Virus record (IMG/VR): IMGVR_UViG_3300031463_000001
Span: 1-64,000 of that record
Length of the DNA stretch: 64,000 nucleotides
Origin: a virus
Direction: 5' to 3' (one strand)
Positions within the stretch are counted from its first letter, which is position 1, and every line of letters starts with the position of its first letter. The notes under the pieces were generated by a model, which searched no databases, had not been told where the DNA came from, and saw only the letters and a program-made list of their open reading frames with translations. A program made the position numbers and the translations under genes. Positions 23,752-62,355 of the stretch are shown piece by piece.

Positions 23752-24276
23752 ATGAATATATCTGATTTATTAAAAGATCCAGAAAAAGCAAAAGAGATTT
23801 TAAATTTGGCTATTAGAACCCAAAATAAAGAATTAGTTGAGATATTAATTCCAATAGCCAAAGATCCTTATCTTACTTGTGTATATGCAATAGAAATGGT
23901 TAAGGGAAAAATTAAAGATGAATGGGAAGATATTATTGCACAAGATGCTAAAAACTCTTATTCATATGCAGAATTTGTTTTAGAAAAACCTTTTCCAAAA
24001 GGAGAGGATGCTATTGCTAAAGATCCGAAATATTCCTATTATTATGTTAGAGATGTTTTAAGGAGTCCTTTTCCAAAAGGAGAAGATGCTATTGCTAAAA
24101 ATCCAGAATATTCTTACAAGTATGCAAAATATTTTTTAAAAAATAGATTCATTAAAGGAGAAAAAGAGATTGTCAAAGATAATTATTTGTTTAAAGAATA
24201 TGTAGAATTTCTTAAAAATATTGGTAAACTAGACGAATTCTTAAAAGATCATCCAGAAGTAAAAGATAAAGTATGA
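23752..24276 (+). CDS. 26-aa helical-repeat family protein (3 KGE units; start moved from 23731)
   Basis: MNISDLLKDPEK start, PFPKGEDAIA repeats, KLDEFLKDHPEVK end. Confidence 0.85.
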   Translation: MNISDLLKDPEKAKEILNLAIRTQNKELVEILIPIAKDPYLTCVYAIEMVKGKIKDEWEDIIAQDAKNSYSYAEFVLEKPFPKGEDAIAKDPKYSYYYVRDVLRSPFPKGEDAIAKNPEYSYKYAKYFLKNRFIKGEKEIVKDNYLFKEYVEFLKNIGKLDEFLKDHPEVKDKV

Positions 24277-24869
24277 ATATAGAAGATTTGTTAAAAGATC
24301 CCGAAAAAGCAAAAGAGGCTTTAGATAATGCCATTAGAACCCAAAATAAAGAATTAGCTGAGATATTAATCCCAATAGTTAAAAATCTTTATTTAATTTA
24401 TAGATATGCTAGAGATATAGTTGGAGGAAAGATTAAAGATGAATGGGAAGACATAATTGCTACCAATCCTAGATATTCGTATCATTATGCTTATGAAGTC
24501 TTAAATGGTCCTTTTCCAAAAGGAGAAAATGCTATAGCCACCGATGCAGAATATTCTTATAGATATGCCCTAAATGTTTTACATGAACCATTTCCAAAAG
24601 GAGAAAATGCAATTGCAACTGATCCTTTTTATTCCTTTTTTTATGCTTGTGAAGTTATAAAGGGTCCATTCCTAAAGGGAGAAGATACTATATCTAAAGA
24701 TGATTATCATTCTTATGAGTATGCCAAATTTATTCTTAATGATAGATTTATTAAAGGAGAAGGAGCTATAATTAAGTATAAAAAATATATTGATTCTTAT
24801 ATAGGTTTTCTTAAAGAAATTGGTAAACTAGACGAATTCTTAAAAGATCACCCAGAGGTTAAATTATGA
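24273..24869 (+). CDS. 26-aa helical-repeat family protein (4 units)
   Basis: Same caps and repeats; ATGA overlap with neighbours. Confidence 0.85.
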   Translation: MNIEDLLKDPEKAKEALDNAIRTQNKELAEILIPIVKNLYLIYRYARDIVGGKIKDEWEDIIATNPRYSYHYAYEVLNGPFPKGENAIATDAEYSYRYALNVLHEPFPKGENAIATDPFYSFFYACEVIKGPFLKGEDTISKDDYHSYEYAKFILNDRFIKGEGAIIKYKKYIDSYIGFLKEIGKLDEFLKDHPEVKL

Positions 24870-25537
24870 ATATATCTGATTTATTAAAAGATCCAGAAAA
24901 AGCAAAAGAGGTTTTAGATTTGGCTATTAGAACCCAAAATAAAGAATTAGCTGAAATGTTAATTCCAATAGTTAAAGATCCTTATTTAATTTATAGATAT
25001 GCAGATCGAATAGCTAAAAGAAAAGTTAAAGACGAATGGGAAGATATTATTGCTCAAGATTCTTATGCTTCTTACGATTATGCTAACTATATTTTAAAAG
25101 GTCCTTTTCCAAAAGGAGAGGATGCTATTTCTCAAAAGCCTTTTACTTCTTACTATTATGTTAAAAATGTCTTACATGGTCCCTTTCCAAAAGGAGAAGA
25201 TGCTATTGCTCAAAATGCTTTTTATTCTTATTCTTATGCTGCAGAGGTTTTAAAGGGTCCATTTCCTAAAGGTGAGGATACCATTGCTAAAGATTCAGAA
25301 TATTCTTATCTTTATGCTGAAAATGTTTTACAAGGACCTTTTCCTAAAGGAGAAGATGTTATTAGTAAAGAGAATTATTATGCTTATCATTATGCTAAAG
25401 TAGTGTTACATAATAGATTTCCAAAAGGAGAAAAAGCAATAATAAATTCAATTTGGTTAGAACCTTATGTTGAGTTTCTTAAAAACATAAACAAATTAGA
25501 TGAATTCCTAAAAGATCATCCAGAAGTAAAAAGATAG
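24866..25537 (+). CDS. 26-aa helical-repeat family protein (5 units)
   Basis: Same caps; 78-bp internal period (for example 25100 and 25178). Confidence 0.85.
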   Translation: MNISDLLKDPEKAKEVLDLAIRTQNKELAEMLIPIVKDPYLIYRYADRIAKRKVKDEWEDIIAQDSYASYDYANYILKGPFPKGEDAISQKPFTSYYYVKNVLHGPFPKGEDAIAQNAFYSYSYAAEVLKGPFPKGEDTIAKDSEYSYLYAENVLQGPFPKGEDVISKENYYAYHYAKVVLHNRFPKGEKAIINSIWLEPYVEFLKNINKLDEFLKDHPEVKR

Positions 25538-25540
25538 AAT

Positions 25541-25996
25541 ATGAATATAACTGATTTATTAAAAGATCCAGAAAAAGCCAAAGAAGTATTGGAAAAGGTA
25601 CTTGATGATAAAAATAAAGAATTAGCTGAAATATTAATCCCAGTAGTTAGAGATCCTTATTTAACTTATGCATATGCTTCCGAAATAGTTGAAGGGAAAA
25701 TTAAAGACGAGTGGGAAGATATTATTATGCAAAATGCAAAGTATTCTTATTTTTATGCATTTGATGTTATAAAGGAACCTTGGCCAAAAGGAGAAGATGC
25801 AATAGCCCAAGCCGATGATGTAGCTATTATATATGATTATGCAACAGAGATATTACATGATCGATTTAAAAAAGGTGAGGATTCAATTATTAGGATTGAT
25901 AAGGGATATGTTGAAGCGTATATGGAATTTTTAAAAAAGATTAGTAAACTAGATGAGTTTTTAAAAGATCATCCGGAGGTAAAGTCCAATTTGTAA
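25541..25996 (+). CDS. 26-aa helical-repeat family protein (2 units)
   Basis: Same caps and repeats. Confidence 0.85.
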   Translation: MNITDLLKDPEKAKEVLEKVLDDKNKELAEILIPVVRDPYLTYAYASEIVEGKIKDEWEDIIMQNAKYSYFYAFDVIKEPWPKGEDAIAQADDVAIIYDYATEILHDRFKKGEDSIIRIDKGYVEAYMEFLKKISKLDEFLKDHPEVKSNL

Positions 25997-26006
25997 ATAT
26001 TGATTT
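25991..26006 (+). promoter_or_regulatory. Putative late-promoter motif TTGT-N5-TTGATTT
   Basis: ttgt-aaata-ttgattt, 5 nt before ATG 26012, at the head of the tail operon. Confidence 0.55.
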
Positions 26007-26011
26007 TAAAT

Positions 26012-26581
26012 ATGAGTGGCTTAGATAGTTCTCAGGTAGTTACTAGGATTAGAAATGCTTTTATTTTACATCTTAGGGATATCTTTAAAAAGCATCCTAC
26101 TTATACGTATGTAGAAAAAGATGAAGGAATGCCTGATTATGAGAAAACTAAATTGATTATTTTTGATGTTACTCCATTAGAACCTTTTATGGTTCCTGCT
26201 ATAATTGTAAATACAGTTCCTTCTAATGAGATTAGATTCGTTCAGAATTCAGACTTTTTTTATAGAGAAAATGAAACTACTGATGTTATGGGAGCTTTGA
26301 TTACTGGGGATGTGAATATAGAAATTTTATCTTTAAGTACCATAGATAGAGATAAACTTGTGGATGTAGTTTATGATTTTTCTAAAAAGTTTACTGAAGA
26401 ATTAGAGAAGTATGGAATTGCTATTATTTCTTCTTCATTTGATCCTTCGAGTCAAACATATATAAATGATAGATGGTGGTATTCAAGTAAAATGAGAATG
26501 AAATTCTTTACTGAGTATACTGATGAAGTAAAGTATGATTTATTAACAAAAATAAATTTTGATTATAAAATAGGAGGTTAA
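26012..26581 (+). CDS. Putative tail completion/terminator protein
   Basis: Directly upstream of the sheath; PAIIV...IEILS....DRDKLVD pattern. Confidence 0.6.
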   Translation: MSGLDSSQVVTRIRNAFILHLRDIFKKHPTYTYVEKDEGMPDYEKTKLIIFDVTPLEPFMVPAIIVNTVPSNEIRFVQNSDFFYRENETTDVMGALITGDVNIEILSLSTIDRDKLVDVVYDFSKKFTEELEKYGIAIISSSFDPSSQTYINDRWWYSSKMRMKFFTEYTDEVKYDLLTKINFDYKIGG

Positions 26582-26583
26582 TT

Positions 26584-28254
26584 ATGCCAAATTTAAAACA
26601 GTTGGGTGTTGAACCTGGAGTATATGTAGAATATTCTCCAACTACTACTCTTCCTTCTGGTTTATTTATAAATGTACTTGCATTAATTGGTAGAGGAGCA
26701 GATACAAAAATAGAGAAAGAAGAAATTGTAAAAGTAGATGGTCCAATAGATAACTTATCTTATACTACCACAGATGCTTCATTTATTACTACTATAAATG
26801 ATCAATTTAGTAACATTTATAAAGTAGGAATGGATTTTGTCGTTAAAGACAATAATAAAATAGATTGGAGTTTGAATGGTTCTCCAATTAAAGCTACTTT
26901 GATTACAAATGTAGATTCAACCTTTAATTGGAGTTCATTAGAAGGAAAAAGTTTAACTTTTAGTATAAATGGAGCTAGTCCAATAACAATTCTTTTTGGG
27001 CAGCCTATAAATGGAATAGATGATGTAATTAGTGCTTTAAATTTTAGTTTAGGAAGTGTTGCTATAGCTAGTTCAGTTACTATTGAAGGAATAGCCCAAA
27101 TTCAAATAGTTGTTAAAGATTTTCATACTTTTAACTATTTTGTATCAACTTCAATTGAAGTATTAAGTGTAGGAGATTCAGATGGATTATCTTTTTTGAA
27201 ATGGTGGAATAAACAAATAGAGTGGGGATCAAAGGAACCAAAAGTAGATAATACTTTCTATGTAAGTTATCCTAGAAAGAAAATTTATCCAGATGATTAT
27301 CAACCAAAATATTTCTTTGCTTATTCTCAAATAGTAGATGAATATGGAGAAATAGATACTGATAATCCTTTAAGTACTTCTTTAAGCCTTGGAGCAAAAA
27401 TTGCATTTGAGAATAATGTTTCAGCTCTTCTTTGTGTTCCTCTAAATCCTAGTTTAAATGATTATGTGGGAATTAAAGAAGCTTTAGAGAAACTTAAAAA
27501 TTATGATTGTTCTTATATTGTTCCACTTACTAATGATAAAAACATATTGACAGATTTAAAAAGTCATGTGGACTTTATGAGTTCTTTAACTGAAAGGAAA
27601 CCTAGAAAAGCAATGTTTGGTTTGCCAGAAATGGATAAAGAAAGTATTATATCATTAGCTCAATCGATAAATGATATGAGAATAACTTTAGTATATCCAT
27701 TTATAGGAAAAAGAACAGAAGGGGGAATAGATATAATTCTTCCAAGTTCTTTTATAGCGTGTGAACTTGCCGCAAAGAGATGTGCTGCTCTTTTGCCTTC
27801 ACAACCTCTTTTAAGGGCTCAATTAGTAAGTTTTATAGATATAAATGATACTTGGACAAGAACAGAAAAGAATATGGTGGCCGGAGCTGGAGTAACAATT
27901 ATAGAAAAAGTTCCAAATATTAATGTTATGCGAGTAAGAGATTGGTTAACTACCTCTCAAAATGGTTTACATTCAAGTGGAGAAATAGTAGATATAATTG
28001 ATTATGTAATGACTAGAGTAATGAATATAACTGAGGGTGCATTTATTGGTAAACCTTTAACAGATGAAATAATTCTTTTAATTTATGCTTTCATTACTAA
28101 TTTCTTAGATGGTTTAATATCTAATGGAATTATAAATAGTTACAACAATTTAGTAGTGAAGAAAAATGATCAAGAACCCACCCAAGTAGATGTTTCATTT
28201 GAGATTAAACCTATATTTACTCTCAAATATATTTATATTAGGTTTACGATTTAA
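26584..28254 (+). CDS. Tail sheath protein
   Basis: N-terminal PGVYVE; C-terminal AGVTIIE...RDWLTT...IIDYV...EPTQVDVSFEIKPIFTLKYIYIRF. Confidence 0.92.
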   Translation: MPNLKQLGVEPGVYVEYSPTTTLPSGLFINVLALIGRGADTKIEKEEIVKVDGPIDNLSYTTTDASFITTINDQFSNIYKVGMDFVVKDNNKIDWSLNGSPIKATLITNVDSTFNWSSLEGKSLTFSINGASPITILFGQPINGIDDVISALNFSLGSVAIASSVTIEGIAQIQIVVKDFHTFNYFVSTSIEVLSVGDSDGLSFLKWWNKQIEWGSKEPKVDNTFYVSYPRKKIYPDDYQPKYFFAYSQIVDEYGEIDTDNPLSTSLSLGAKIAFENNVSALLCVPLNPSLNDYVGIKEALEKLKNYDCSYIVPLTNDKNILTDLKSHVDFMSSLTERKPRKAMFGLPEMDKESIISLAQSINDMRITLVYPFIGKRTEGGIDIILPSSFIACELAAKRCAALLPSQPLLRAQLVSFIDINDTWTRTEKNMVAGAGVTIIEKVPNINVMRVRDWLTTSQNGLHSSGEIVDIIDYVMTRVMNITEGAFIGKPLTDEIILLIYAFITNFLDGLISNGIINSYNNLVVKKNDQEPTQVDVSFEIKPIFTLKYIYIRFTI

Positions 28255-28267
28255 ATAGGAGGTTTTT

Positions 28268-44566: not shown

Positions 44567-45088
44567 TTATTGGGGTGTTATTTCTGGATGATCTTTATAG
44601 AACTCATCTAGTTTACCAATTTGTTTAAGAAAATTGGTATAAGAGGTAAGTTGTTTTTTATTTTTAATTATAGTTCCTTCTCCCTTAATAAATCTATCTT
44701 TTAAAACGTTTTGAGCATAAAGGCATGAGTAATAGCTATCAGTAGCTATAGTATTTTCACCTTTAGGAAAAGGACCATGCAAAACATCACTAGCATAACC
44801 ATATGCATATCTTAACCATTTAGCCATTTCATCTTCCCCCTTTGGAAAAGGCCCTTTTAAAATAAATTTAGCATACCAAAAAGAAGTTTGGCCATCTAAA
44901 GTAATTATATCTTCAAACGTATCTTTAATCTTACCTTTAGCAATTTTTTCGGCATATTCATAAGTTAAAAAAGGATCTTTAACCATTGGGATTAATGTTT
45001 CTGCTAGTTCTTTATCTTTCTTTTTAATAGCTTCTTTTAATACTTTTTTAATTTTATCGGGATCTTTTAATAAATCTGATATGTTCAT
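44567..45088 (-). CDS. 26-aa helical-repeat family protein (3 units)
   Basis: MNISDLLKDPDK...PFPKGE...KLDEFYKDHPE. Confidence 0.85.
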   Translation of the reverse strand: MNISDLLKDPDKIKKVLKEAIKKKDKELAETLIPMVKDPFLTYEYAEKIAKGKIKDTFEDIITLDGQTSFWYAKFILKGPFPKGEDEMAKWLRYAYGYASDVLHGPFPKGENTIATDSYYSCLYAQNVLKDRFIKGEGTIIKNKKQLTSYTNFLKQIGKLDEFYKDHPEITPQ

Positions 45089-45528
45089 AATTTATCTTTA
45101 ACCTCTGGATGGTCTTTTAGAAATTCGTTTAACTTATTAATTTTTTTAAGAAAATCTATATAATCCCAAAAATAATCAAAATTAATAATAGTATCCTCTC
45201 CCTTAATAAACCTATCTTTTAACACATCTTTAGCATACCAAAAAGAATACCAAGAATTTTTAGCTATAACATCTTCTCCTTTAATAAATCTATCTTTTAA
45301 AACATAACTAGAATAAAAAAAAGAAAATTTTGAATCTTGAGCAATAATATCTTCAAACTCATCTTTAATCTTACCTTTAGCAACTTTTTCCGCATATTCA
45401 CAAGTTAACTCGGGATCGTTAACTATTGGGATTAACATTTCTGCTGCTTCTTTATTTTTATCTTCAATAGCTTTTTCTAATACTTTTTTAGCTTTATTTG
45501 GATCTTTTAATAAATCTGATATGTTCAT
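45085..45528 (-). CDS. 26-aa helical-repeat family protein (2 units)
   Basis: Same caps and repeats. Confidence 0.85.
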   Translation of the reverse strand: MNISDLLKDPNKAKKVLEKAIEDKNKEAAEMLIPIVNDPELTCEYAEKVAKGKIKDEFEDIIAQDSKFSFFYSSYVLKDRFIKGEDVIAKNSWYSFWYAKDVLKDRFIKGEDTIINFDYFWDYIDFLKKINKLNEFLKDHPEVKDKL

Positions 45529-46133
45529 ACTTTATCTTTTACCTCTGGATGATTGTTTAAGAATTCTTTTAATTTTTTTATTCGTCTAAGAAAATTTATA
45601 TAACTCTTTAAATAAGTTGAATCGGAATTATTTATAATTGTATTTTCACCTTTAATGAATCTATCTCTTAAAACTTCTTTTGCATATCTAACTGAATAAT
45701 TAGAATTGGTAGCAATAGCATCTTCTCCTTTTGGGAATGGACTATGTAATATATATGCGGCATATTCAAATGAATGGTTTGGCTGTTTAGCTATTGCATC
45801 CTCTCCTTTTGGCCACGGTCCTTTTATAACATTAAATGCATATGAGTAAGCACTCCAAGGATCTTTAGAAATAGTATCTTCTCCTTTAGGAAACGGACCC
45901 TTTAAAACCTCATAAGCATACCAATAAGACCATATTCCATCTTGAGCAATTATATCTTCCCACTCATCTTTAATCTTACCTTTAACTATTCTTACAGCAT
46001 AAAGTTCTGTTAAACGGGGTTCTTTAACTATTGGGATTAACATTTCTGCTAATTCTTTGTTTTTGTTATCAATAGCTTCTTTTAATACCTTTTTAATTTT
46101 ATCGGGATCTTTTAATAAATCAGATATGTTCAT
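45525..46133 (-). CDS. 26-aa helical-repeat family protein (4 units)
   Basis: Same caps and repeats. Confidence 0.85.
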   Translation of the reverse strand: MNISDLLKDPDKIKKVLKEAIDNKNKELAEMLIPIVKEPRLTELYAVRIVKGKIKDEWEDIIAQDGIWSYWYAYEVLKGPFPKGEDTISKDPWSAYSYAFNVIKGPWPKGEDAIAKQPNHSFEYAAYILHSPFPKGEDAIATNSNYSVRYAKEVLRDRFIKGENTIINNSDSTYLKSYINFLRRIKKLKEFLNNHPEVKDKV

Positions 46134-46648
46134 AATTTAATTTTGTATATACTATGACCTTTCTCTATAAATTCTGCAGAAAAGTTTTGATGTAATACAT
46201 GAGATCTCCAACGTGTTTCTTTCTTTTCAATTATCCACCATCTACCCCCATCCTTCCTTACAATAAAATCTCCATTCTGTAAAGAGGGTTCAAAGAGAGT
46301 CCACCCACTTAATATAGCTTCATTTTTTATACCTTGTTCAGTAGGTTTAAATCTTTGATTAAATGGTGTAATCATACTAATTTTAATTTCAATGGGACGA
46401 TAAAATCCACCAACATAATTAGTTCCAAAACAATAAAGACAAAATTCAATTTGAGGATGTTGTCCTCTTATCTTATCAAAATTAGGACAAATTTGGCCCT
46501 CTCTCTTTTTTCTATAATATAAAACACGTTCACCTCCCATCTCCAATAACCATTTCTCTCTATTTCGAATTTCCAGGAGGTATCTGACTAAAGGATCAAA
46601 GTTACGATCTGAAACATTGGGAAGAATTTGTAGGTGAGACCAACTCAT
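46130..46648 (-). CDS. Putative head-closure/neck protein with a Zn site
   Basis: GERVLYY.KK..G..CP...CLYCFGTNYVGGF...P.LQNGDFIV...RW pattern resembling large-myophage neck proteins. Confidence 0.55.
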   Translation of the reverse strand: MSWSHLQILPNVSDRNFDPLVRYLLEIRNREKWLLEMGGERVLYYRKKREGQICPNFDKIRGQHPQIEFCLYCFGTNYVGGFYRPIEIKISMITPFNQRFKPTEQGIKNEAILSGWTLFEPSLQNGDFIVRKDGGRWWIIEKKETRWRSHVLHQNFSAEFIEKGHSIYKIKL

Positions 46649-47169
46649 AGTTTAACCTCCGGATGATCTTTTAAGAATTCATCTAGTTTATTTATAGATT
46701 TAAGGAAATTAATATAATCTTCCAAATATCTTTTTTTAGGAGAATTAATAATAACATCCTCTCCTTTAATAAATCTATCTTTTAAAACATCTTGAGCATA
46801 TCGATTAGAACTCCAAAAATCAGTAGCAATAGCAGGTTCTCCTTTTGGCCAAGGACCTTTTATAATATCTCTAGCATATAAATAAGCATAATTATCATCT
46901 TTAGCAAGTGTATCTTCACCTCTAGGGAATGGACCTTTTAAAACAAATAAAGCATAATCATATGAAACTTTTACACTTTGAGCAATTATGTCTTCAAATT
47001 CATCTTTAACTTTACCCCGAGTTATATAATATGCATATTCATAAGTTAACGCGGGATCTTTAATTATTGGTATTAACATTTCTGCTAATTCTCTTTTTTC
47101 ACTAGTTATAGCCTTCCATAAAACTTTTTTAATTTTATCGGGATCTTTTAATAAATCTCCTATATTCAT
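46645..47169 (-). CDS. 26-aa helical-repeat family protein (3 units)
   Basis: Same caps and repeats. Confidence 0.85.
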   Translation of the reverse strand: MNIGDLLKDPDKIKKVLWKAITSEKRELAEMLIPIIKDPALTYEYAYYITRGKVKDEFEDIIAQSVKVSYDYALFVLKGPFPRGEDTLAKDDNYAYLYARDIIKGPWPKGEPAIATDFWSSNRYAQDVLKDRFIKGEDVIINSPKKRYLEDYINFLKSINKLDEFLKDHPEVKL

Positions 47170-47612
47170 AATTTATCTTTTACCTCCGGATGATCTTTTA
47201 AAAACTCATCTAGTTTGTATATAGATTCAAGGAAACTAATATAATCCTTTAAATATTCTTTATCTTTAATAATAATATTTTCTCCTAAAAGAAATCTATC
47301 TTTTAAAATATTTTTAGCATAATCAAAAGAATACAATGAATCTTTAGCAATAGTGGGTTCTCCTTTTAGGAATGGTCCATGTAAAACATTTTCAGCATAC
47401 CAACAAGAAACAGGTGCGCTTTGTGCAATAATATCTTCCCACTCGTCTTTAATTGGTTTTCTAACTATTCGTTGAGCATATTTATAGGTTAAATAAGGAT
47501 CTTTAACTATTGGAATTAACATTTCGGCTAATTCTTTGTTTAAATCATCAATAGCATCTCTTAATACTTCTTTAGCTTTATCTGGGTTTTTTAATAAATC
47601 TGATATATTCAT
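47166..47612 (-). CDS. 26-aa helical-repeat family protein (2 units)
   Basis: Same caps and repeats. Confidence 0.85.
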   Translation of the reverse strand: MNISDLLKNPDKAKEVLRDAIDDLNKELAEMLIPIVKDPYLTYKYAQRIVRKPIKDEWEDIIAQSAPVSCWYAENVLHGPFLKGEPTIAKDSLYSFDYAKNILKDRFLLGENIIIKDKEYLKDYISFLESIYKLDEFLKDHPEVKDKL

Positions 47613-48223
47613 AATTTAACTTCTGGATGATCTTTTAAGAATTCATCTAGTTTATTTATTGTTTTTAAGAAATCGATATATTTTATCAAATAATTTTTTT
47701 CACCTTCTTGATCTCCACTATCTATAATTACATTTTCTCCTTTAACAAATCTACCCTTTGATACATCTCTAGCATAATGATAAGAATAATAAGGATCTTT
47801 AGCAATAACATCCTCTCCTTTAATAAAAGGTTTTTGTAAAACATTTGCAGCATAAAGATAAGAGAAAGTGGGATCTTTAGCTATAACATCCTCACCTTTA
47901 GGAAATGGACCTTTTAAGACCTCATAAGCATAATAATAAGAACTATAGGCGTTAGTAGCAATAGCATCTTCTCCTTTTGGGAATGGGGCATGTAAAACAA
48001 AGCTAGCATATCGATAAGAATAAAGGGGATCTTTAGTAATAATATCTTCCCATTCATCTTTAATTTTATTTTCAGCTATTTCAAGGGCATATCTAAAAGT
48101 TAACCCAGGATCTTTAACTATTGGAATTAACATTTTAGCTAATTTTCTTTCCCCAGTATTTATAGCTTTTCTTAATGCTTTTTCAGCTTTACTTGGATCT
48201 TTTAATAAATCTAAAAGATTCAT
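47609..48223 (-). CDS. 26-aa helical-repeat family protein (4 units)
   Basis: Same caps and repeats. Confidence 0.85.
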   Translation of the reverse strand: MNLLDLLKDPSKAEKALRKAINTGERKLAKMLIPIVKDPGLTFRYALEIAENKIKDEWEDIITKDPLYSYRYASFVLHAPFPKGEDAIATNAYSSYYYAYEVLKGPFPKGEDVIAKDPTFSYLYAANVLQKPFIKGEDVIAKDPYYSYHYARDVSKGRFVKGENVIIDSGDQEGEKNYLIKYIDFLKTINKLDEFLKDHPEVKL

Positions 48224-51057: not shown

Positions 51058-51528
51058 TTATTTTAAAATTTGATCAACTTTTGAAGCTTCCTCTTCTCCT
51101 TTCTTTTTCTTAGTATAATCAACAATTTCTTTCTTTTCTTCTTCATTTAAATTCCATCTCTTTATCAAATCTTTAAACACTGATACAAAATTCACATCAA
51201 TCATTTTCTTTATAATGGAGATTATATAAAATCTATCTTTAATATCACTTATATGTGGGTTATCTTCAAGTTGTCTAATTTTTTCTAAATCCATATTTTT
51301 AAGTGCCTTTATGAACATCATATATTTTGAATCATCTGTTAGAGTTTTTTCCCACGCTTCAGTTAAGGTTTCCTCTAATTCTTTTTCAGTTTTTTGGGTT
51401 CTTTCAAGTACTTCTTCTCCATATGCTTCAACATCTTCCCATTTATAACTCTTTAATATTAAAGGATTTTTTAATATTTCTCCAATATTTATCTTACCTT
51501 CTTTTATCAACTTTATAAGTTTTTTCAT
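51058..51528 (-). CDS. Hypothetical helical protein with tag-like INIGEILKNP
   Basis: SD ggagg; resembles the helical region of the 942-aa protein. Confidence 0.7.
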   Translation of the reverse strand: MKKLIKLIKEGKINIGEILKNPLILKSYKWEDVEAYGEEVLERTQKTEKELEETLTEAWEKTLTDDSKYMMFIKALKNMDLEKIRQLEDNPHISDIKDRFYIISIIKKMIDVNFVSVFKDLIKRWNLNEEEKKEIVDYTKKKKGEEEASKVDQILK

Positions 51529-51538: not shown

Positions 51539-52117
51539 TTAAATTAATTTTTTCAAATTTTCTTTAAGCATATCTACATATTCGTTATACAAAGAATCAA
51601 GATCCGATTCTAATTCCTTTTTCATTATTTCTTGCTTTACTTCGTTTTTATTAAACATTTTTAAAGCATATTTTAGGTCTTCCAATATACTCCTTAATTC
51701 ATTAATTTTTTTCTCAATAGGAACTTTTTCCTCTAGCAAGCTATCCCAATATTCATTTAAATTTATCAAATCTTTTACTACTTCTTCATTACTTAAGTTA
51801 AACTTTAATTCAAACTTTGTATAATCAATAAAATCATCTGATTTAACTATTTCAAAATTTTTCCTTATTAATTTATCAACTTTGTCCCAATAATCTGGCA
51901 TAATCTCAATATCCCACCTATCGAAAAACCTTTCTAATTTTTTTTCTCCTATCTTTTCAATTGTTTCATTATCAATATCTATAGTTGGTTTATAAACATC
52001 AATTTCAAAAATTTCATCATCTTTACTACTCCAACTTTCATCAACTTCTTTAATTTTGTCTTTTACTTTAACTATATCAGCTAATTCAGGATATTTTAAT
52101 AAATCAGATATATTCAT
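51539..52117 (-). CDS. Acidic coiled-coil protein, ISDLLKYP family
   Basis: MNISDLLKYPEL start; similar layout to 52117-52689 and 54278-54844. Confidence 0.75.
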   Translation of the reverse strand: MNISDLLKYPELADIVKVKDKIKEVDESWSSKDDEIFEIDVYKPTIDIDNETIEKIGEKKLERFFDRWDIEIMPDYWDKVDKLIRKNFEIVKSDDFIDYTKFELKFNLSNEEVVKDLINLNEYWDSLLEEKVPIEKKINELRSILEDLKYALKMFNKNEVKQEIMKKELESDLDSLYNEYVDMLKENLKKLI

Positions 52118-52689
52118 TAGGTTAACTCCTTAATTATTTTATCCCACATTTTTCTATATTTTACATATAGAGGAGGTAATTGGGGTCTAAGTAATTCTTG
52201 ACTATTCTCCCTTATTTGTTTATTTATTTCAAAATTATTTAAATCATGTTTAGCATTAACATTCCATCCCGAATATGTATCTTTTAAATCTTCTATTGGT
52301 CGATCACTCTTTAAAAGAAATTCAATTTCTTTTATTTCATTTTTAAAATTTTTCATAATTTCTTTATTACTTATACTAATAGGCTTAGCTTTAAGGATAA
52401 GTTTATCCTCACTTGGTCTAAATTCATAAATATCAAGATCATATGCTTCGACTACTTCGCTTACTTCATCCAAGTATTTTTTACGAGTCTCATTATATAA
52501 TTTGTGTAATTGTTCCCATTTTTCTTCATTATCAAATAATTCATGTTCAAGTTTTTGAGGAATTACTAAATCATCTATTGTAAAAACAGATATTTCTGAT
52601 TCGGGATTATTTAGGATATCTTTAATTTTATTGTAGGTAACTAACACATCACCTAAAAAAGGATATTTTAATAAATCAGATATTTTCAT
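52117..52689 (-). CDS. Acidic coiled-coil protein, ISDLLKYP family
   Basis: MKISDLLKYPFL start. Confidence 0.75.
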   Translation of the reverse strand: MKISDLLKYPFLGDVLVTYNKIKDILNNPESEISVFTIDDLVIPQKLEHELFDNEEKWEQLHKLYNETRKKYLDEVSEVVEAYDLDIYEFRPSEDKLILKAKPISISNKEIMKNFKNEIKEIEFLLKSDRPIEDLKDTYSGWNVNAKHDLNNFEINKQIRENSQELLRPQLPPLYVKYRKMWDKIIKELT

Positions 52690-54281
52690 GGTTCTAACAC
52701 ATCCAGAAATTTATTTATCAAATCTATTTGAGAAGGAGTAAAAATCCATCTTTTTCCATTTTGTTTTTCAAACCACGATCTTGCAGTATTACCTAATACA
52801 TCTGCAGTAGCTTTCCAATCAGCCACCATTTCCAAAATATATTCATTTGGCATTCTAGAGGCATCTACTTTTTGGGTTGCATTATCTGGATCTTCACCTA
52901 CTATTTCTACTTTATCACACCAATATTCTGGATGATGTTTACTATTTTTAATGTGATGGAATAAAACTTGTTTTTCATTTTCTTTTAAAGGTTCTTTAAT
53001 CTTGTTGAACTTTTTGTAGGTTAAATCAATATAAGGAGTTCTTTCAGGTTCTTTCATTTTCAATTCATCATGTTTTTCTACATTTTTTAATGCGTCTGAA
53101 TATTGAGGAAACGCTTTAACTAATTTTTTAACATTATTTTTTACTCTATTAACATGGTTAGCTATATGGGCTTGATATTCTTTTTCTTTATCATTCCAAA
53201 AAGGATCTTTTAATAAAGCTTTAATTTCTATTTTATTATTTTTAACTAAATTCAAAAGGTTAGCTTCTTTTGATATTTCATTCCAATTAGGTATTTGTTC
53301 TAATCTTAAATCAGTAGGATCAATTCTTTTATCTGGTCTAATCCTAACAAAAGTAGGTATCCTTAAAGCTATTCCTGTATCTTCTCCTAAATATTCTAAT
53401 GTTTTTTCATCATAAACAGGTACATCTTTTACAAAATAACTTATTGCTTCAACCTCTATTACATATTTAGGTTTAACAAATATTCTATCTTTTTCTTGAT
53501 ATAATTTATCTTGTTGAGATATTTTTAACCATTCTTCTTTTTCTTTTTGATCTAACCCACCCACATTTCCTGCATATCTAAACTTATTTTCTTTATCCAT
53601 AAACGCTAAACCCAAAGAACCTACCATTTCTGGATGCTCCTTACTTTTCTCTATAAATATTACACCTAAATCAAATGTTAAAGTTGGTTTACATTTATAA
53701 ATATTCTTATCTGTATAAATAACAGCTCCTTCGTATTTTTTAGTTATAACTAAATTCCAATCATTAGTGTAATCTTTCATTTCAATAATGGGATGAACTA
53801 ATTTTCCACTTTCAAAAATTTTTCTAACTTTTATTATTCCATCTTCAACTTTTTCATCATCTAAATGTAATACATCTAAAACATAAAATCTAATTTTGGT
53901 TTCATCATTTGGAGAAGGTTTATTAACAAGGTGGAGTGTTTTATTAAAAGGAAGCATATATCCTTGATTGTCAGAAGCATATAATTCACCTACAATTAAA
54001 GCAAATGTTATGGGGTGGGATTCTAAAATTTGACGGATCTCTTTAAGTACAGGTAAATCTTTTCTAATTATTCCATTTTGGGTAATGAAATAGGGATCGT
54101 CTCCATATTTATAAACCAAAAGATTTAAAATTCCGTCTATCTTAAAAGTTATATATTTAACATTTTCTTTTTTTATTATCTTATCAATATCCTCGAAATT
54201 AATGGTTTTCATACTTTTCTCTTCTTTCCATTTTTGTAATATTGGTAAAAATTTATTTTGTTTGTCTATTTTTTTAATCAT
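52686..54281 (-). CDS. ATP-dependent DNA ligase fused to a C-terminal HD-like (DUF5662-like) domain
   Basis: Ligase motifs KIDG, GELY, FYVLDVL, EGAV, KCKP, LRIPTFVRIRPDK; then H...H...HD.LK...HH..SKHHPEYW...MP..YILEMVADW. Confidence 0.85.
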   Translation of the reverse strand: MIKKIDKQNKFLPILQKWKEEKSMKTINFEDIDKIIKKENVKYITFKIDGILNLLVYKYGDDPYFITQNGIIRKDLPVLKEIRQILESHPITFALIVGELYASDNQGYMLPFNKTLHLVNKPSPNDETKIRFYVLDVLHLDDEKVEDGIIKVRKIFESGKLVHPIIEMKDYTNDWNLVITKKYEGAVIYTDKNIYKCKPTLTFDLGVIFIEKSKEHPEMVGSLGLAFMDKENKFRYAGNVGGLDQKEKEEWLKISQQDKLYQEKDRIFVKPKYVIEVEAISYFVKDVPVYDEKTLEYLGEDTGIALRIPTFVRIRPDKRIDPTDLRLEQIPNWNEISKEANLLNLVKNNKIEIKALLKDPFWNDKEKEYQAHIANHVNRVKNNVKKLVKAFPQYSDALKNVEKHDELKMKEPERTPYIDLTYKKFNKIKEPLKENEKQVLFHHIKNSKHHPEYWCDKVEIVGEDPDNATQKVDASRMPNEYILEMVADWKATADVLGNTARSWFEKQNGKRWIFTPSQIDLINKFLDVLEP

Positions 54282-54844
54282 TTTCCTTTATTTTTGATTA
54301 TGTCCTTTAATGTTTCTTTTAACATTTCTTCATAATCAGATTTAATTTTTTTAATTTCTTTTTCTATTTCTTTAATAGCATCCTCATTTTCTTTTTCAGT
54401 TTCTTCCAAAATTTTCAAGGATTCCTCTAAACTTTTCCCATATTCAACTATAGCTGAAATATTTTCTTCTATATTTTTTTCTTTAAACAAAATGTTTAAC
54501 TCAAACAAATCATCATGCATACTTTCTAAAATACTTCGTAAACTTTGTTTTGGAATTAACTTAAAAGAGGAAACACTCCACTGATCTTTTAAATCAAAAT
54601 TTTTCTCTATGATTTTAGTAGCATTCTTATAAAAATTAGTCATTAAATATTCATATTGATCATAAAGAGGTTTCAAATCTTCGTCTGAAAGAAAATCAGG
54701 AATTTTTATTTTAGGTTCTTCTATATCAAGTTCATAATTATCTATTTCTTCTAATTCATAAAGTTGAGTAACTTTTTTTGCATTATTATAAACTTTAATG
54801 ACATCCACTAATTGAGGATATTTTAATAAATCTGAAATGTCCAT
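54278..54844 (-). CDS. Acidic coiled-coil protein, ISDLLKYP family
   Basis: MDISDLLKYPQL start. Confidence 0.75.
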   Translation of the reverse strand: MDISDLLKYPQLVDVIKVYNNAKKVTQLYELEEIDNYELDIEEPKIKIPDFLSDEDLKPLYDQYEYLMTNFYKNATKIIEKNFDLKDQWSVSSFKLIPKQSLRSILESMHDDLFELNILFKEKNIEENISAIVEYGKSLEESLKILEETEKENEDAIKEIEKEIKKIKSDYEEMLKETLKDIIKNKGK

Positions 54845-54900: not shown

Positions 54901-55236
54901 TTAATCTTTTCTTACCCATTTACCATCTTCGGTTTTCTTGTATTGTTCTTTTACAGCACTCCATGCAGCTCGAGCAGCATATTCATCACTTTTTCCATAT
55001 TCTTTACTAGAGTTAAAAACTCCCATCCAAATATCTTGGGCATGCACAGGAAGTTCATCAATCATCTTTCTAATTTTTTCTCTACTTGATTTAGGTCTTT
55101 CTCTAAGTTCCTCTGCAACCTCTTCTTTAGTACTTTCAGTAGCAGCCTTAATAACTCTAGCAAGTTGAGTTTCATCTAACGAAGCCAACCATTCGTTTAA
55201 TTTGGTTGGATTATTTAGCAACGATTTGATATCCAT
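54901..55236 (-). CDS. chaB: ChaB family protein with an N-terminal extension
   Basis: LPVHAQDIW..VFNS.....DEYAARAAWSAVKEQYKK..DGKW. Confidence 0.85.
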   Translation of the reverse strand: MDIKSLLNNPTKLNEWLASLDETQLARVIKAATESTKEEVAEELRERPKSSREKIRKMIDELPVHAQDIWMGVFNSSKEYGKSDEYAARAAWSAVKEQYKKTEDGKWVRKD

Positions 55237-55246: not shown

Positions 55247-55651
55247 TTAATCTTTTATCTTTTTCAATAAAGCTTCAATCACTTTTTTAATTTCGTAAGC
55301 GGGATAACTCTTTAAAAACCATTCCAACTTTTCTCTTTTAGCTAAAAATTCAATATATTCAGTTATAATATCTTCATCTCCACTTTCTAATATAGCTTTT
55401 TCTCCTTTAATAAATCTATTTCTTAGTGTCCATTGAGCATATTCTAATGACATTTTAGCATCGGTGGCAATAATATCTTCTACTTCAGGAACAGGGTATT
55501 TACTTCTATAATAAACGTATTCAGAAATTATATCCTTATTTCGGGTATATTTTAGTAGTTCAGAGGCGGTATATTCATCATCTTCATCAAGAGCCCTCTT
55601 AATTCTACCTTCTAATCCACCTGGTTCTTTTAATAAATCAGAAACATCCAT
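55247..55651 (-). CDS. Divergent member of the helical-repeat family (start moved from 55702)
   Basis: MDVSDLLKEP; EDIIATD..SLEYA...L.NRFIKGE.AI...YIEFL...KLE.FLK.YP. Confidence 0.75.
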   Translation of the reverse strand: MDVSDLLKEPGGLEGRIKRALDEDDEYTASELLKYTRNKDIISEYVYYRSKYPVPEVEDIIATDAKMSLEYAQWTLRNRFIKGEKAILESGDEDIITEYIEFLAKREKLEWFLKSYPAYEIKKVIEALLKKIKD

Positions 55652-56884: not shown

Positions 56885-56895
56885 TTCCCCTCCCT

Positions 56896-58780: not shown

Positions 58781-58828
58781 AGTTTCCTCTACTAAATTAA
58801 CAAAAAAAAGGATTAGTTTTTTACCCAT

Positions 58829-58864
58829 AAAAAAATAGGGAAGAGATTTTTTCTCTTCCCTATT
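58829..58864 (-). terminator. Intrinsic terminator
   Basis: Stem aatagggaagaga/tctcttccctatt with a T tract on the - strand. Confidence 0.8.
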
Positions 58865-58889
58865 AAAGAAGGAAATATGAACGTTTTAC

Positions 58890-60023: not shown

Positions 60024-60033
60024 ATTTCACCCC

Positions 60034-60069
60034 AAAAAAAAGCTGGGTTATTTTTTACATAACCCAGCT
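60034..60069 (-). terminator. Intrinsic terminator
   Basis: Stem agctgggttat/ataacccagct with a T tract on the - strand. Confidence 0.8.
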
Positions 60070-60080
60070 CCTATTTATTT

Positions 60081-61340
60081 TTAAAATAATTTTTCTTCCT
60101 CTATTTCTTCTGTTTCTTTAGTAGGTGTTACTGGCTTTTTATATTGCTCTCTAGGAATCATTTTTTCTGTATATACTTTAGTTTCCTCTTCTTCAGTTGG
60201 ATAGGCCTTTTCTAGTAAAGAAGAAATACCCTCAATAAGTTTAACCATTTTATTTATAGACTCATCTCCTTTTTGAGTTATTTCTTCCATACCAACCTCA
60301 CTCTTTAATCTATTTATCTCTTTTATTATAAAGTCTATTGAGGCAGGTCTAACTTTTCTAGCGATTGCTTTTTCACCTATCAGCATTATCTTTTCTCCTA
60401 AGTCTATTACTTTAGCATCTAACTCCTTTAACTTAGGATAAATTCTCTCAATTAATTTACTCCTTACTTTTGTGCACAAATCTCTATTTGTAATAGTACC
60501 CATTTCTAAACTGAATTTCTTTTCAACTTCATTTAATTTTTCTAAGAACTCTTTAGATCTACCAATCCACTCTCCATGTATTTCCTCTAAAGTCTGAACA
60601 TATTCTTGTACTTCAGGAGGTAACTCCTCGAATTTTCTTATTGCTTCTTTTGAAATATTTTTTTTGATTTTGGCTGGAGTTAAAGCTAGTTCAAGTTCGT
60701 CTTCAGTCATTTCAGCTTCTTCACCTTCCATCATAGAAAGGACTCCATCCGCACTTTTTAATACTTTATCTAAATAAGTATTTGCTTCATCTAAATATGA
60801 CTCAACCTCATCCAATATTTCAAAAACCTCAGACTCATCTATTTTTTTAGATGTATCCTTTAAAATTTCTCCCTTAAACTCTTCTTCACCTATTGCAGAA
60901 TGGATTATTCTAGCTAATCTTAAAGCAAATTTATTTTTATCTCCAACTGCTTGTTTAAAAAGTTCTCTAATATTTTTGGGAGGGTTTACCAAAAAGTCTA
61001 CATAGTGTTCTTTTAACTCTTTAAGTTCGGCTGTATCCTCTACCTTAGATATGACTTTAATTCCCAAAGAGTTTACTTTTTCATTTAATTTTTTTGTAAA
61101 ATGAGCTAATCTACTAATTTTTTCTTTATTGTAATTAGCTTTTTTTAGTATATCTACTATATTATCTCTACCAAATATTAATGCTTCTTGTAATCCTAAT
61201 GTTGTATCTTCCATTTTAGGTAAAAGAGCTTTCACAATCCTTTCTTTTCCTAAACTACATGCAGCTACAAACAATGCATCTTTGTTTACTCTCTTAACTA
61301 ATTCTGGATTATCTTTTTTTAATTCTGAGTATATGTTCAT
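60081..61340 (-). CDS. Helical protein with ankyrin-like N-terminus and coiled coil, paralogue of 58890-60023
   Basis: Strong SD aaggagg; shared N-terminal half. Confidence 0.75.
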   Translation of the reverse strand: MNIYSELKKDNPELVKRVNKDALFVAACSLGKERIVKALLPKMEDTTLGLQEALIFGRDNIVDILKKANYNKEKISRLAHFTKKLNEKVNSLGIKVISKVEDTAELKELKEHYVDFLVNPPKNIRELFKQAVGDKNKFALRLARIIHSAIGEEEFKGEILKDTSKKIDESEVFEILDEVESYLDEANTYLDKVLKSADGVLSMMEGEEAEMTEDELELALTPAKIKKNISKEAIRKFEELPPEVQEYVQTLEEIHGEWIGRSKEFLEKLNEVEKKFSLEMGTITNRDLCTKVRSKLIERIYPKLKELDAKVIDLGEKIMLIGEKAIARKVRPASIDFIIKEINRLKSEVGMEEITQKGDESINKMVKLIEGISSLLEKAYPTEEEETKVYTEKMIPREQYKKPVTPTKETEEIEEEKLF

Positions 61341-61398
61341 TTATTTCCTCCTTAAGTTTTTGATTTAAAGTACCTTATAAACAATCCATCTATTTTAA

Positions 61399-61414
61399 AA
61401 ATCAAAAACGACAA
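61399..61414 (-). promoter_or_regulatory. Putative late-promoter motif TTGT-N5-TTGATTT
   Basis: ttgt-cgttt-ttgattt on the - strand upstream of 61340. Confidence 0.55.
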
Positions 61415-61421
61415 ACAAAAA

Positions 61422-61664
61422 TTACTTCTTTAAGTTTTCTAGTTCCTTAACATATAAATGACCAAATAAAGGTTCTTGTAAAAGAAAAGATTCTATTTTA
61501 GGAGGTAATCTTTTTCGGAACGTTACAAAATGCCTATAAAGAAGTCGAGGTTCTTTTATGTTGGGTAATAATGCTGAAGCAATTTTTTTATTTTTTTCAA
61601 TTAAAGCTTTCTCGAATACTTTAATTATGTTGTTATTATCTTTTAAGAGATCTGAAATACGCAT
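61422..61664 (-). CDS. Short divergent member of the repeat family (N-cap only)
   Basis: MRISDLLKD...FEKAL.EKNKKIA..LLP.IKEP.LLY. Confidence 0.7.
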   Translation of the reverse strand: MRISDLLKDNNNIIKVFEKALIEKNKKIASALLPNIKEPRLLYRHFVTFRKRLPPKIESFLLQEPLFGHLYVKELENLKK

Positions 61665-61671
61665 CACAAAA

Positions 61672-61687
61672 AAATCAAAAAAGACAA
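61672..61687 (-). promoter_or_regulatory. Putative late-promoter motif TTGT-N5-TTGATTT
   Basis: ttgt-ctttt-ttgattt, 4 nt before GTG-ATG, no SD. Confidence 0.5.
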
Positions 61688-61688
61688 A

Positions 61689-61916
61689 TCAAATGAAATC
61701 GTAAGGAGGTAAAAAACCTAATTCTTTAACTAGTTTTTCCTGAAGAGGTCGACTAATTTTATTTGTTTTAAAAAAGTATTTTAACCATGCTATTTCCCAA
61801 TAATTAGGATTATTATATTCTAGATTTCCATGCTTTCTTAAAGTTTGATTTTTTAAAAACCACTTTAAATCTTTCTTGATTTTATCAAAATAATTTAAAT
61901 TATTGTTCATCGACAA
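61689..61916 (-). CDS. Hypothetical protein
   Basis: ORF overlapping the upstream stop. Confidence 0.55.
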   Translation of the reverse strand: MSMNNNLNYFDKIKKDLKWFLKNQTLRKHGNLEYNNPNYWEIAWLKYFFKTNKISRPLQEKLVKELGFLPPYDFI

Positions 61917-62355
61917 ATAGTGTGGGGTAATCTTTTTTGAATTCGTTAAATTTATTTATTTGTTTTAGAAAAGATAAGTATTCTTTAAGATGAGTACTTT
62001 TAATTATTAAATTTTCAGCTAAAGGAAATCTGTCTTTTAAAATAGTTTTAGCATAATCAAGTGACATTTGAGAATTTGAAGTAGCTATTATGTTTTCTAA
62101 TTCAATCCATCTTTCCTTTTTTACTTTAATTAAATAATCAAAAGCTAATATGCTAAACTTTACCAAAATTTGTTCTTTTTCTGGTGGTAACTTTATTTTT
62201 TTATAAATAGCTACCCTATAAATGATTTCAGGATCTTCAATATTTTTTATCAATTTTAAAAGAGTTTTTTTTGATAATCTCATAATTAAATCATAATTAT
62301 TTCGAAGTTCTTGTTCTATTAGTTGAGGATTCTTTAATAAGTTAGATAGATTCAT
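61900..62355 (-). CDS. Divergent member of the helical-repeat family
   Basis: MNLSNLLKNP; ENIIAT..SLDYAKTILKDRFPLAE.LI...YLSFLKQINKFNEFKKDYP. Confidence 0.75.
   Translation of the reverse strand: MNLSNLLKNPQLIEQELRNNYDLIMRLSKKTLLKLIKNIEDPEIIYRVAIYKKIKLPPEKEQILVKFSILAFDYLIKVKKERWIELENIIATSNSQMSLDYAKTILKDRFPLAENLIIKSTHLKEYLSFLKQINKFNEFKKDYPTLFVDEQ

Follow-up and report, generated by a model that had tools for sequence, protein, structure and literature searches.

A decapeptide with the consensus M-[NDK]-I-x-[DS]-L-L-[KN]-x-P was found at the N-termini of phage proteins with different predicted folds. This tag is conserved, and what its unrelated carriers share is limited to the first 10–16 residues. 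We believe, at roughly an even chance, that it is a portable N-terminal recognition module, probably a docking handle through which one putative partner would deal with many phage proteins. The phage is a myophage with a genome of 124,898 bp and 28% GC, and the window, that is, the whole stretch of DNA analysed here, is the first 64 kb of this genome.

Occurrence and specificity of the tag

The tag opens 17 proteins in the window, namely ten close repeat proteins, three divergent ones, three acidic proteins and a ChaB-domain protein (Table 1), and translation confirmed all 17 of the N-termini named by the first-pass annotation. The description of these carriers as about 20 proteins of unrelated folds was overstated: 13 of the 17 carriers are members of a single alpha-solenoid paralog family and are homologous over their full length (BLAST E values of 1e-10 to 1e-47 for the divergent members against the family), so they count as one family instead of 13 folds. 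The number of tag-bearing families is three, perhaps four or five.

A position matrix was made from tag residues 2–10 and used to scan the 32,276 9-mers of the 139 non-family ORFs. The acidic N-termini ranked first to third, with scores of 24.1, 17.5, and 17.5 (P = 5e-9 to 4e-7 per 9-mer); this profile scan, which had been proposed earlier, excludes chance for the trio. The concern that the motif might be common among phage N-termini was checked with 842 ATG-ORF N-termini from 87 phage loci (692 kb) chosen independently of the tag, of which none scored at least 7 and two scored at least 2.9. The ChaB match is firm (PF06150, 59.7 bits against a curated cut-off of 27), and the tag lies outside the domain in a 55-residue N-terminal extension. 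Taken alone, the tag of the window ChaB protein is weak (score 2.9, 0.085 expected among 139 N-termini), but it is rescued by the ortholog P0003, which is 82% identical, opens with MNIKSLLNDP and scores 12.4 (P = 5.9e-6). The best non-family N-terminus below ChaB scores −0.9, in line with the earlier statement that the tag is absent from the ruvB block, the nucleotidase and the tail genes.

Copies of the tag had also been suggested inside other proteins. FNVKEFLGNP in LigD-Pol (score −2.6, 169 such 9-mers expected by chance) and the scaffold look-alike (score 7.8, 2.2 expected) are noise, and KIEIKALLKDP in the ligase protein (0.3 expected) and KINIGEILKNP in the protein 51058–51528 (0.2 expected) are borderline. 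By matrix score, none of the repair enzymes has a significant tag; the "HD domain" assigned to the ligase protein is Pfam DUF5662. The genome ORF 85120–85932 begins with a stretch 98% identical to the first 61 residues of the protein 51058–51528. When IMG/VR was searched with a degenerate nucleotide pattern of the tag, 11 loci were returned, only one of which was a relative (G001), and in this relative the solenoid family members retain the tag.

Table 1. Tagged genes and borderline tag-like peptides in the window
Feature	Position	Strand	Peptide	Remarks
Four solenoid genes (23752–24276, 24273–24869, 24866–25537, 25541–25996)	array 23752..25996	+	MNI[SET]DLLKDP, opening each	
Six solenoid genes	array 44567..48223	−		tags from 45088, 45528, 46133, 47169, 47612, 48223
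Tag-like peptide, borderline	51463..51495	−	KINIGEILKNP	residues 12–22 of the 156-aa protein 51058–51528
Acidic protein 1, 192 aa, pI 4.6	51539..52117	−	MNISDLLKYP	predicted alpha/beta fold, not solenoid
Acidic protein 2, 190 aa	52117..52689	−	MKISDLLKYP	paralog of acidic protein 1
Tag-like peptide, borderline	53202..53234	−	KIEIKALLKDP	linker from ligase part to DUF5662, protein 52686–54281
Acidic protein 3, 188 aa	54278..54844	−	MDISDLLKYP	paralog of acidic protein 1
ChaB-domain protein, 111 aa	54901..55236	−	MDIKSLLNNP	Pfam ChaB E=4.2e-16, residues 60–110
Divergent solenoid member	55247..55651	−	MDVSDLLKEP	full-length BLAST to family, E down to 4e-17
Short solenoid member or fragment, 80 aa	61422..61664	−	MRISDLLKDN	tag-less N-cap profile E=3.4e-10
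Divergent solenoid member	61900..62355	−	MNLSNLLKNP	BLAST E down to 1.8e-22, residues 1–146

Different predicted folds behind one helix

The claim that the similarity between families ends after the tag was borne out. A profile of solenoid residues 11–47 found 26 ORFs at E<1e-4 and recovered neither the acidic trio nor ChaB, and hhalign aligned the solenoid and acidic families confidently over about the first 10 columns only. With 37 ORFs genome-wide, the solenoid family accounts for roughly one in five ORFs of this phage. In the AF2 model of 47166–47612 (all-alpha, pLDDT 96.2), the tag forms helix 3–8 and is followed by helices 10–22, 26–36 and onward, with a mean pLDDT of 78 for residues 1–10. 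Here the tag helix is continuous with the repeat stack and repeat-like, and this was found in the solenoid family only. The tag is not confined to solenoid proteins, for the alpha/beta acidic family and ChaB carry it as well. The acidic proteins deserve their label (pI 4.6, 5.2, and 4.65), and their model shows three strands and long helices (pLDDT 89.9) in a fold unlike the solenoid; the tag occupies helix 3–8 in both models, with a turn and then a longer helix behind it.

Conservation of the tag is most evident in the acidic family. A profile search of 1.84 billion representatives returned five proteins, which were the trio, with one member represented by a near-identical copy, and the foreign homologs P0006 and P0007, both opening with MNISDLLKYPEL. 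In the alignment of the five, nine of the first ten columns and L12 are invariant, and beyond L12 there are five invariant columns, at an overall identity of 28–42%. The positions expected to face solvent (S4, D5, K8, and Y9) are invariant as well. In the solenoid family, conservation within the N-cap peaks at positions 1–8 (32 members), and the divergent members have retained the tag although the residues after it drifted. Between this genome and G001, the tags of orthologous solenoids agree at 6–7 of 10 positions against 56–74% overall, which is about equal conservation, and ChaB and P0003 agree at 8 of 10 tag positions against 82% overall. Since neither comparison sets the tag apart from the remainder of the protein, the acidic family and the divergent solenoids are the only places where extra constraint is clear.

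We consider it doubtful that the tag has no common function and is only the first helix of each fold, for example a solenoid half-repeat (helix B ending in h-h-x-D-P), which would have spread by 5′-end recombination with one of about 35 genome copies and persisted by descent and gene conversion. By inspection, the tag does resemble both GEDAIAxDP, the second helix of the 26-aa solenoid repeat, and EFLKDHPEVK, the tail of the C-cap; the AF2 model joins the tag helix to the N-cap, and the lack of extra constraint in orthologous solenoids and ChaB points the same way. The DNA of the genome also offers a route, since array junctions are near-identical, tag and tail DNA share the 10-nt word TTAAAAGATC (38 occurrences in the genome), and the mini-ORF at genome positions 91022–91069 reads like a family gene reduced to its opening four codons and its final eleven, which indicates that the ends of family genes do recombine, at least once. 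However, a peripheral helix would allow conservative changes, whereas the acidic tag is invariant at nine of ten positions, surface ones included, in proteins of such low identity. Tyr9 is private to the acidic family (the solenoids have D, N, H, or E at this position), so copying from solenoid genes does not explain it, and no family junction was found in the DNA upstream of the acidic genes and ChaB. Moreover, one helix heads three predicted folds, and in the ORF 85120–85932 about 120 residues separate a tag-like peptide from a complete family body.

In the recognition module that we favor, the tag would be a six-residue amphipathic helix (residues 3–8) with I3, L6, and L7 on one face and Pro10 closing it. 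Its main home is the first N-cap helix of the 37-ORF solenoid family, and it also opens the proteins of two or more small families of other descent, the acidic alpha/beta proteins and ChaB, where purifying selection on the protein would keep it. A common putative partner would then recognise many different proteins of the phage lineage via the tag. Because the tag is kept by selection, it is probably a common recognition handle, and we infer that a partner binds it. With two firm non-solenoid carrier families, the phrase "many different proteins" rests mostly on the solenoid family. In the ORF 84058–84711 and in the ORFs 51058 and 85120, 6–21 extra residues precede the tag-like peptide, which is a poor fit to a strictly terminal signal.

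Constraint at the protein level

The codons of the tag vary synonymously at N2 (23 AAT, 8 AAC), S4 (8/7/1), P10 (16/5/5), and L6, and the Leu and Ser codons of the ChaB tag differ from those of the other copies. These differences among copies indicate that the constraint acts at the protein level. Part of the sameness of the copies is due to shared descent or gene conversion. P0003, P0006, and P0007 were compared as proteins only.

It is very improbable that the first 30 nt act as a nucleic-acid signal, whether as an operator for a repressor or small RNA, as an enhancer of translation start or as a joint at which cassettes would be exchanged by recombination. T4 RegA, a translational repressor, provides the analogy for an operator; I3 (25 ATA, 4 ATT) and L7 (33 TTA, 1 CTA) are more uniform than the codon usage of the genome predicts, and the word shared by tag and tail, with at least one recombination, would suit a joint. 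Against such a signal stand the four positions that vary synonymously, and ChaB and the divergent members, in which clearly different DNA encodes the peptide. The similarity begins exactly at the ATG, and the DNA before it differs from one family to the next.

Genomic setting and possible capsid targeting

The structural block lies on the + strand and holds four of the 17 tagged genes, the array 23752..25996, which has a Zn-ribbon/DUF559 gene on one side and the tail sheath gene on the other. The other 13 are on the − strand among repair genes, and they comprise nine of the 13 window solenoids, the acidic trio and ChaB, near ligase, polymerase and RuvB-like genes. Additional solenoid arrays are located in the replication block. 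Only a minority of the tagged genes belong to the structural block; most are found amid repair and replication genes. An unrelated, untagged ORF (46130–46648) is embedded in the array 44567..48223. Scans for promoters, terminators and k-mers revealed neither a class signal nor timing information for the tagged genes.

The first-pass annotation had appealed to phage T4, and the pertinent passages of PMC3012670, PMC5694885, and PMC9026906 show this precedent to be accurate. As described in such passages of PMC9026906 and PMC3012670, the internal proteins of T4 are otherwise diverse but carry N-terminal propeptides of 10–19 residues, of which the first 10 suffice in IPIII. Similarly, gp53 and gp54 of phage SPN3US, which are 34% identical overall, share the same N-terminal sequence, and the authors likened them to the capsid-targeting sequences (CTSs) of T4 in the part of PMC5694885 that treats them. 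By analogy, the prohead core or shell may be regarded as the best-precedented candidate for the partner of the tag.

Capsid targeting nevertheless seems unlikely to us as an explanation of the tag. In this reading, the tag would attach to the scaffolding core or to the inside of the shell, and its carriers would enter the prohead and be injected with the DNA. The pattern fits the T4 precedent as far as those passages describe it: like the CTSs of IPI, IPII, IPIII, and Alt, the tag occupies about ten residues at the extreme N-terminus of otherwise unrelated proteins, here of three families. The acidic paralogs, which keep their N-termini at about a third identity while their bodies diverged, mirror gp53 and gp54 in the account available for that pair, although the SPN3US propeptides exceed 100 residues with cleavage known by mass spectrometry, whereas the tag shares only 10–12 residues. 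This phage, like T4 in the same sources, has a head maturation protease; its domain is fused to a long Glu/Lys-rich region, and four tagged genes stand within the structural block. The protease domain matched PHROG models only, with no Pfam match and no PDB sequence match, and is not placed in a family of known specificity. Unlike the T4 CTSs, the tag has no visible cleavage consensus behind it; by inspection, no conserved residue pattern follows Pro10, and position 11 is E, D, N, S, K, or G. Most carriers belong to one solenoid family, in whose model the peptide runs into the N-cap and is not a free propeptide. Most tag genes lie outside the head module, on the − strand or in the replication block as described above, and the scans yielded no timing information; the carriers are known here from their genes. 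About 40 cargo species would lack precedent. It is still less likely that the tag is a lineage-specific loading code, independent of that of T4, by which ChaB, the acidic proteins and dozens of variable binders of the solenoid family would be loaded into the head. The phage would in that case deliver a ready library of binders along with its DNA and disarm the defences of the host ahead of its own gene expression.

Comparison with other systems and significance

The sequence of the tag is, to our knowledge, unrelated to the T4 CTS. The cargo-loading peptides of encapsulins are short, conserved and found on unrelated cargo, and they dock inside an HK97-fold shell. The likeness lies in a short peptide on unrelated proteins and in the capsid protein of this phage, a short HK97-fold protein, with the docking of the tag hypothetical. 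The encapsulin peptides are usually C-terminal and Gly-rich, unlike the N-terminal tag. The ankyrin-repeat proteins of poxviruses have a constant C-terminal PRANC/F-box end of about 30–50 residues that binds host Skp1. They resemble the solenoid family in logic only, as a large family of repeat-protein paralogs with variable binding surfaces and a constant short terminal module that brings in a shared partner; the two are unrelated in sequence, and their hosts belong to different kingdoms.

Short transferable sorting or docking peptides are, as far as we know, rare and useful, and we know of the T4 CTS as the sole well-studied phage example. The T4 CTS has been turned into a tool for packaging foreign proteins. 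If the tag is a structural helix spread by recombination, the result would be a modest note on how cassette-like families seed chimeric genes. If it is a second, unrelated sorting or docking peptide, it would give a handle on the role of an opaque family of 37 genes and on the ways in which phages coordinate numerous accessory proteins.

The Tag and the Solenoid Family

The tag, the N-terminal decapeptide M-[NDK]-I-x-[DS]-L-L-[KN]-x-P, was found at all 17 N-termini where the first-pass annotation had named it, by a six-frame motif scan, a list of ORF starts and translation of the exact coordinates. When translated, the ten close repeat proteins open with MNI[SETG]DLLK[DN]P or MNLLDLLKDP, the three divergent members with MDVSDLLKEP, MRISDLLKDN and MNLSNLLKNP, the acidic proteins with MNISDLLKYP, MKISDLLKYP and MDISDLLKYP, and ChaB with MDIKSLLNNP. 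M1, I3, L6, L7 and K8 form the invariant core, while D5 and P10 are mostly kept; this pattern makes an amphipathic helix closed by proline.

The rarity of the tag in random phage N-termini, on which the earlier proposal depended, was also confirmed. Scored with a position matrix built from tag residues 2–10, none of 842 control N-termini reached at least 7, and two reached at least 2.9. The control N-termini, all distinct and taken from ORFs starting with ATG, came from 87 phage loci (692 kb) fetched for other reasons; the count excluded G001, a close relative, and any locus that the tag pattern had turned up. The degenerate DNA pattern of the tag hit 11 IMG/VR loci, of which one was G001 and the others encode unrelated proteins, some in giant-virus bins. 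The giant-virus-bin proteins (L018, L024, L026), long unrelated proteins on AT-rich contigs that start with MNINDLLKDP or MDINNLLKDP, were rejected as chance pattern matches, and so were the remaining hits in unrelated proteins. The strings ISDLLKDP, ISDLLKYP and DLLKDPEK were not found in the main text of the literature searched.

All-against-all BLAST joined 37 of 176 ORFs, called crudely, into one family of alpha-solenoid repeat proteins, 13 of them in the window; ORF 51058 was linked to it only via a partner located elsewhere in the genome. When 20 members were aligned, all parts but the repeat number proved constant: an N-cap, roughly 47 residues long with the tag first, then a 26-residue repeat (SYxYAxxVLxGPFPKGEDAIAxD) present two to six times, and last a C-cap whose end reads FLKDHPEVKL. 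The genes are arranged in tandem, their stop and start codons overlapping as ATGA and the DNA at their junctions nearly identical, and the divergent members 55247 and 61900 gave full-length matches to the family with E down to 4e-17 and 1.8e-22. The AlphaFold2 model of one member (18 sequences) was an all-helical solenoid with a mean pLDDT of 96.2, in which the tag is helix 3–8, directly followed by helix 10–22.

Features discussed in the text, with positions in the window or in the whole genome (G000)
Feature	Position	Basis
Portal	768-2300	PHROG match
Head maturation protease domain, start of 767-aa protein	2699-5002	PHROG match
HK97-fold major capsid protein	5539-6486	PHROG match, NCBIfam
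Zinc-ribbon protein, 415 aa	22481-23728
Tail sheath	26584-28254	PHROG match
Tape measure		PHROG match
Modelled solenoid member	47166-47612	AlphaFold2
ORF 51058	51058-51528
Acidic protein 1	51539-52117
Acidic protein, second of the trio	52117-52689
Ligase fusion	52686-54281
Acidic protein 3	54278-54844
ChaB	54901-55236
Ankyrin-like paralog, 377 aa	58890-60023	weak matches
Ankyrin-like paralog, 419 aa	60081-61340	weak matches
Extended-start family member (G000)	84058-84711
ORF 85120 (G000)	85120-85932
Mini-ORF, outside the window (G000)	91022-91069

Among 32 members bearing an N-cap, tag positions 1–8 were its most conserved block. The solenoid members of G001 retain the tag in slightly changed form (MNISDLLKNP, MDILDLLKNP, MNIGDILKDV and MDIGSLLKGG), and between orthologs it is conserved about as well as the rest of the protein. 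Other IMG/VR phages carry the same 26-residue repeat with different N-termini. That the tag has no shared function is a reading we consider rather doubtful.

The 415-aa protein has several zinc-ribbon motifs and a DUF559/Vsr-like endonuclease end. Its gene, located in the structural block, immediately precedes the solenoid array of the + strand and may be a homing-endonuclease-like mobile gene. Two paralogs match ankyrin repeats weakly (E about 0.01), and their first 45 residues resemble, by eye, a degenerate family N-cap (MNIYSELKKDNPELVKRV...GKERIVKALLPKMED), a likeness that the profile did not confirm.

The Acidic Trio and ChaB

A solenoid-family profile without the tag (residues 11–47) recovered 26 ORFs at E<1e-4 and missed the acidic trio, ChaB and ORF 51058. 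The trio is a separate family (28–31% identity). Its model, built on three sequences (pLDDT 89.9, pTM 0.78), combines long helices with three strands, and therefore its predicted fold differs from the solenoid; when the two families were compared by hhalign, confidence was limited to roughly the first ten columns. Among 32,276 9-mers from 139 non-family ORFs, the acidic N-termini ranked first to third by the matrix, with exact null probabilities of 5e-9 to 4e-7.

A profile of the acidic family, run against 1.84 billion representatives, matched five proteins: the window's trio (one as a near-identical copy) and two new homologs, P0006 and P0007, which both begin MNISDLLKYPEL. In the five-sequence alignment (28–42% identity to the first sequence), nine of the first ten columns and L12 are invariant, and only five of the later columns. 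Because Tyr9 is private to the acidic family, the conservation of its tag does not come from copying solenoid genes.

Fold searches returned generic helical matches only, with a best Foldseek PDB E of 0.05 for the acidic model and 0.68 for the solenoid model; the best BFVD E was 0.07, and the best VIA wide Z was 8.8, within the stated helical-model noise. No significant match came from the profile searches of Atlas and PDB. Co-folding of the capsid protein with acidic protein 1, run without controls, gave a score of 0.00 and a mark of 0.32, which counts neither way.

The tag of the window's ChaB scored 2.9, and 0.085 such N-termini are expected among 139. Its ortholog P0003 (82% identical) starts with MNIKSLLNDP and scored 12.4 (P = 5.9e-6); therefore, ChaB was accepted as the second non-solenoid carrier, its tag being somewhat decayed in this genome. 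The first-pass annotation had placed the tag on unrelated folds and had itself named homology well beyond the tag as grounds against its proposal. Of the 17 tagged proteins, 13 show such homology, all of one family, so that the claim falls for those 13 and stands for the acidic trio and ChaB.

Weaker Look-Alikes and Displaced Tags

Four further peptides had been read as variants or look-alikes. Those of the LigD-Pol fusion (169 expected by chance) and the scaffold region (2.2 expected) were noise, whereas the ligase-linker peptide (0.3 expected) and residues 12–22 of ORF 51058 (0.2 expected) were borderline. The ligase gene encodes an ATP-dependent ligase C-terminal region fused to DUF5662, and as a query in IMG/VR it retrieved only stand-alone DUF5662 homologs (phages L029 and L030), which start with MKEYTDEM and lack the tag.

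ORF 51058 and ORF 85120 are 98% identical over their first 61 residues. The two sites are far apart and on opposite strands, so the identity suggests that a 5' gene segment was recently duplicated from one to the other. ORF 85120 has a tag-like start and a different domain (helix-hairpin-helix-like, by eye), then a complete family body with its own degenerate tag. In the extended-start family member, ATA has replaced the ATG of the tag (KINIVDLLKDP), and a start at an upstream ATG lengthens the protein by 6 to 21 residues; therefore, the tag is not always extreme N-terminal.

Peptide or Nucleic Acid

Within the tag, codon choice varies synonymously at N2, S4, L6 and P10; at I3 and L7 it is less varied than expected from genome usage. 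The tag DNA of ChaB and the divergent members is clearly different, and the upstream regions are unlike between families. The codon variation and the different DNA spelling thus place the constraint mainly on the peptide, and we regard an RNA or DNA signal as very improbable. Sigma-70-like sites were rarer than in shuffles (97 versus a mean of 122.5; 48 versus 56.5), and in the expression-timing scan no upstream 9-mer distinguished any gene class.

Some of the sameness of the tag comes from descent or gene conversion within the arrays. TTAAAAGATC is common to tag DNA and C-cap DNA. The 48-nt, GTG-started mini-ORF, (M)NIG-EFLKDHSEVEL*, is an in-frame fusion of a family gene's opening four codons with its closing eleven, and looks like a recombination scar between similar tag and tail DNA. 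The tag and tail ends do recombine, and in this way the tag could have spread to other genes.

The Phage and Its Relatives

The genome is a single record of 124,898 bp with 27.9% G+C and zero N, of which the window covers the first 64 kb, and the portal, protease, capsid, sheath and tape measure matches identify a myophage. Among 50,697 phage records, the nearest capsid protein was that of Bacillus phage G (28% identity), and megablast and tblastn gave zero matches for the 44–63 kb region and one solenoid member. Pfam, NCBIfam and PDB sequence searches to type the protease gave no match. P0010, a capsid protein sharing 83% identity with that of the window, lies on a 99.7-kb contig labelled by NCBI as a Candidatus Aenigmatarchaeota metagenome bin, a label that reflects either mis-binning or a host hint.

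Acidic protein 3, ChaB and P0003 retrieved no relative when used to scan IMG/VR, a word-based search with acidic protein 3 gave only the self-match, a scan of genome contigs with P0010 gave nothing, and a metagenome scan with the RuvB-like protein gave one match of no use (26% identity). P0003, P0006 and P0007 were compared at the protein level. The only close relative compared as DNA, G001 (43.7 kb), is syntenic with genome 83.6–124.9 kb and also spans 1–2.6 kb, without the 44–63 kb region. N-termini like QueE, DpdA/TGT-like, GTP cyclohydrolase and QueD were seen by eye at G000 95389-96078, 108685-109473 and 110182-112173, outside the window. With this by-eye identification, they would make up a 7-deazaguanine DNA modification set, and these genes are kept in G001 at 74–84% identity. 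The solenoid family and ChaB are absent from five larger, more distant relatives (63–67% capsid-protein identity), which indicates that the system is confined to a narrow lineage.

Function of the Tag

The first-pass annotation had proposed that the tag targets its carriers to the capsid. The closest precedent is phage T4, whose capsid targeting sequences are N-terminal propeptides of 10–19 residues on otherwise diverse internal proteins, with the first ten residues of IPIII sufficient (PMC9026906, PMC3012670, PMC5694885). Similarly, gp53 and gp54 of SPN3US are diverged paralogs with identical N-termini (PMC5694885). However, nothing in this analysis connects the tag with the head, and the residues after it show no cleavage pattern. 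Repair and replication genes surround most of its carriers, and in the solenoids it belongs to the N-cap. We therefore believe that capsid targeting is unlikely.

Conservative changes should be tolerated in a peripheral helix with a purely structural role, but the acidic family does not tolerate them, and the tag positions expected to face solvent are also invariant there, which argues against such a helix. The near-invariance of the tag in the acidic family and its presence on three predicted folds favour a peptide read by a partner, a reading to which we give an even chance.
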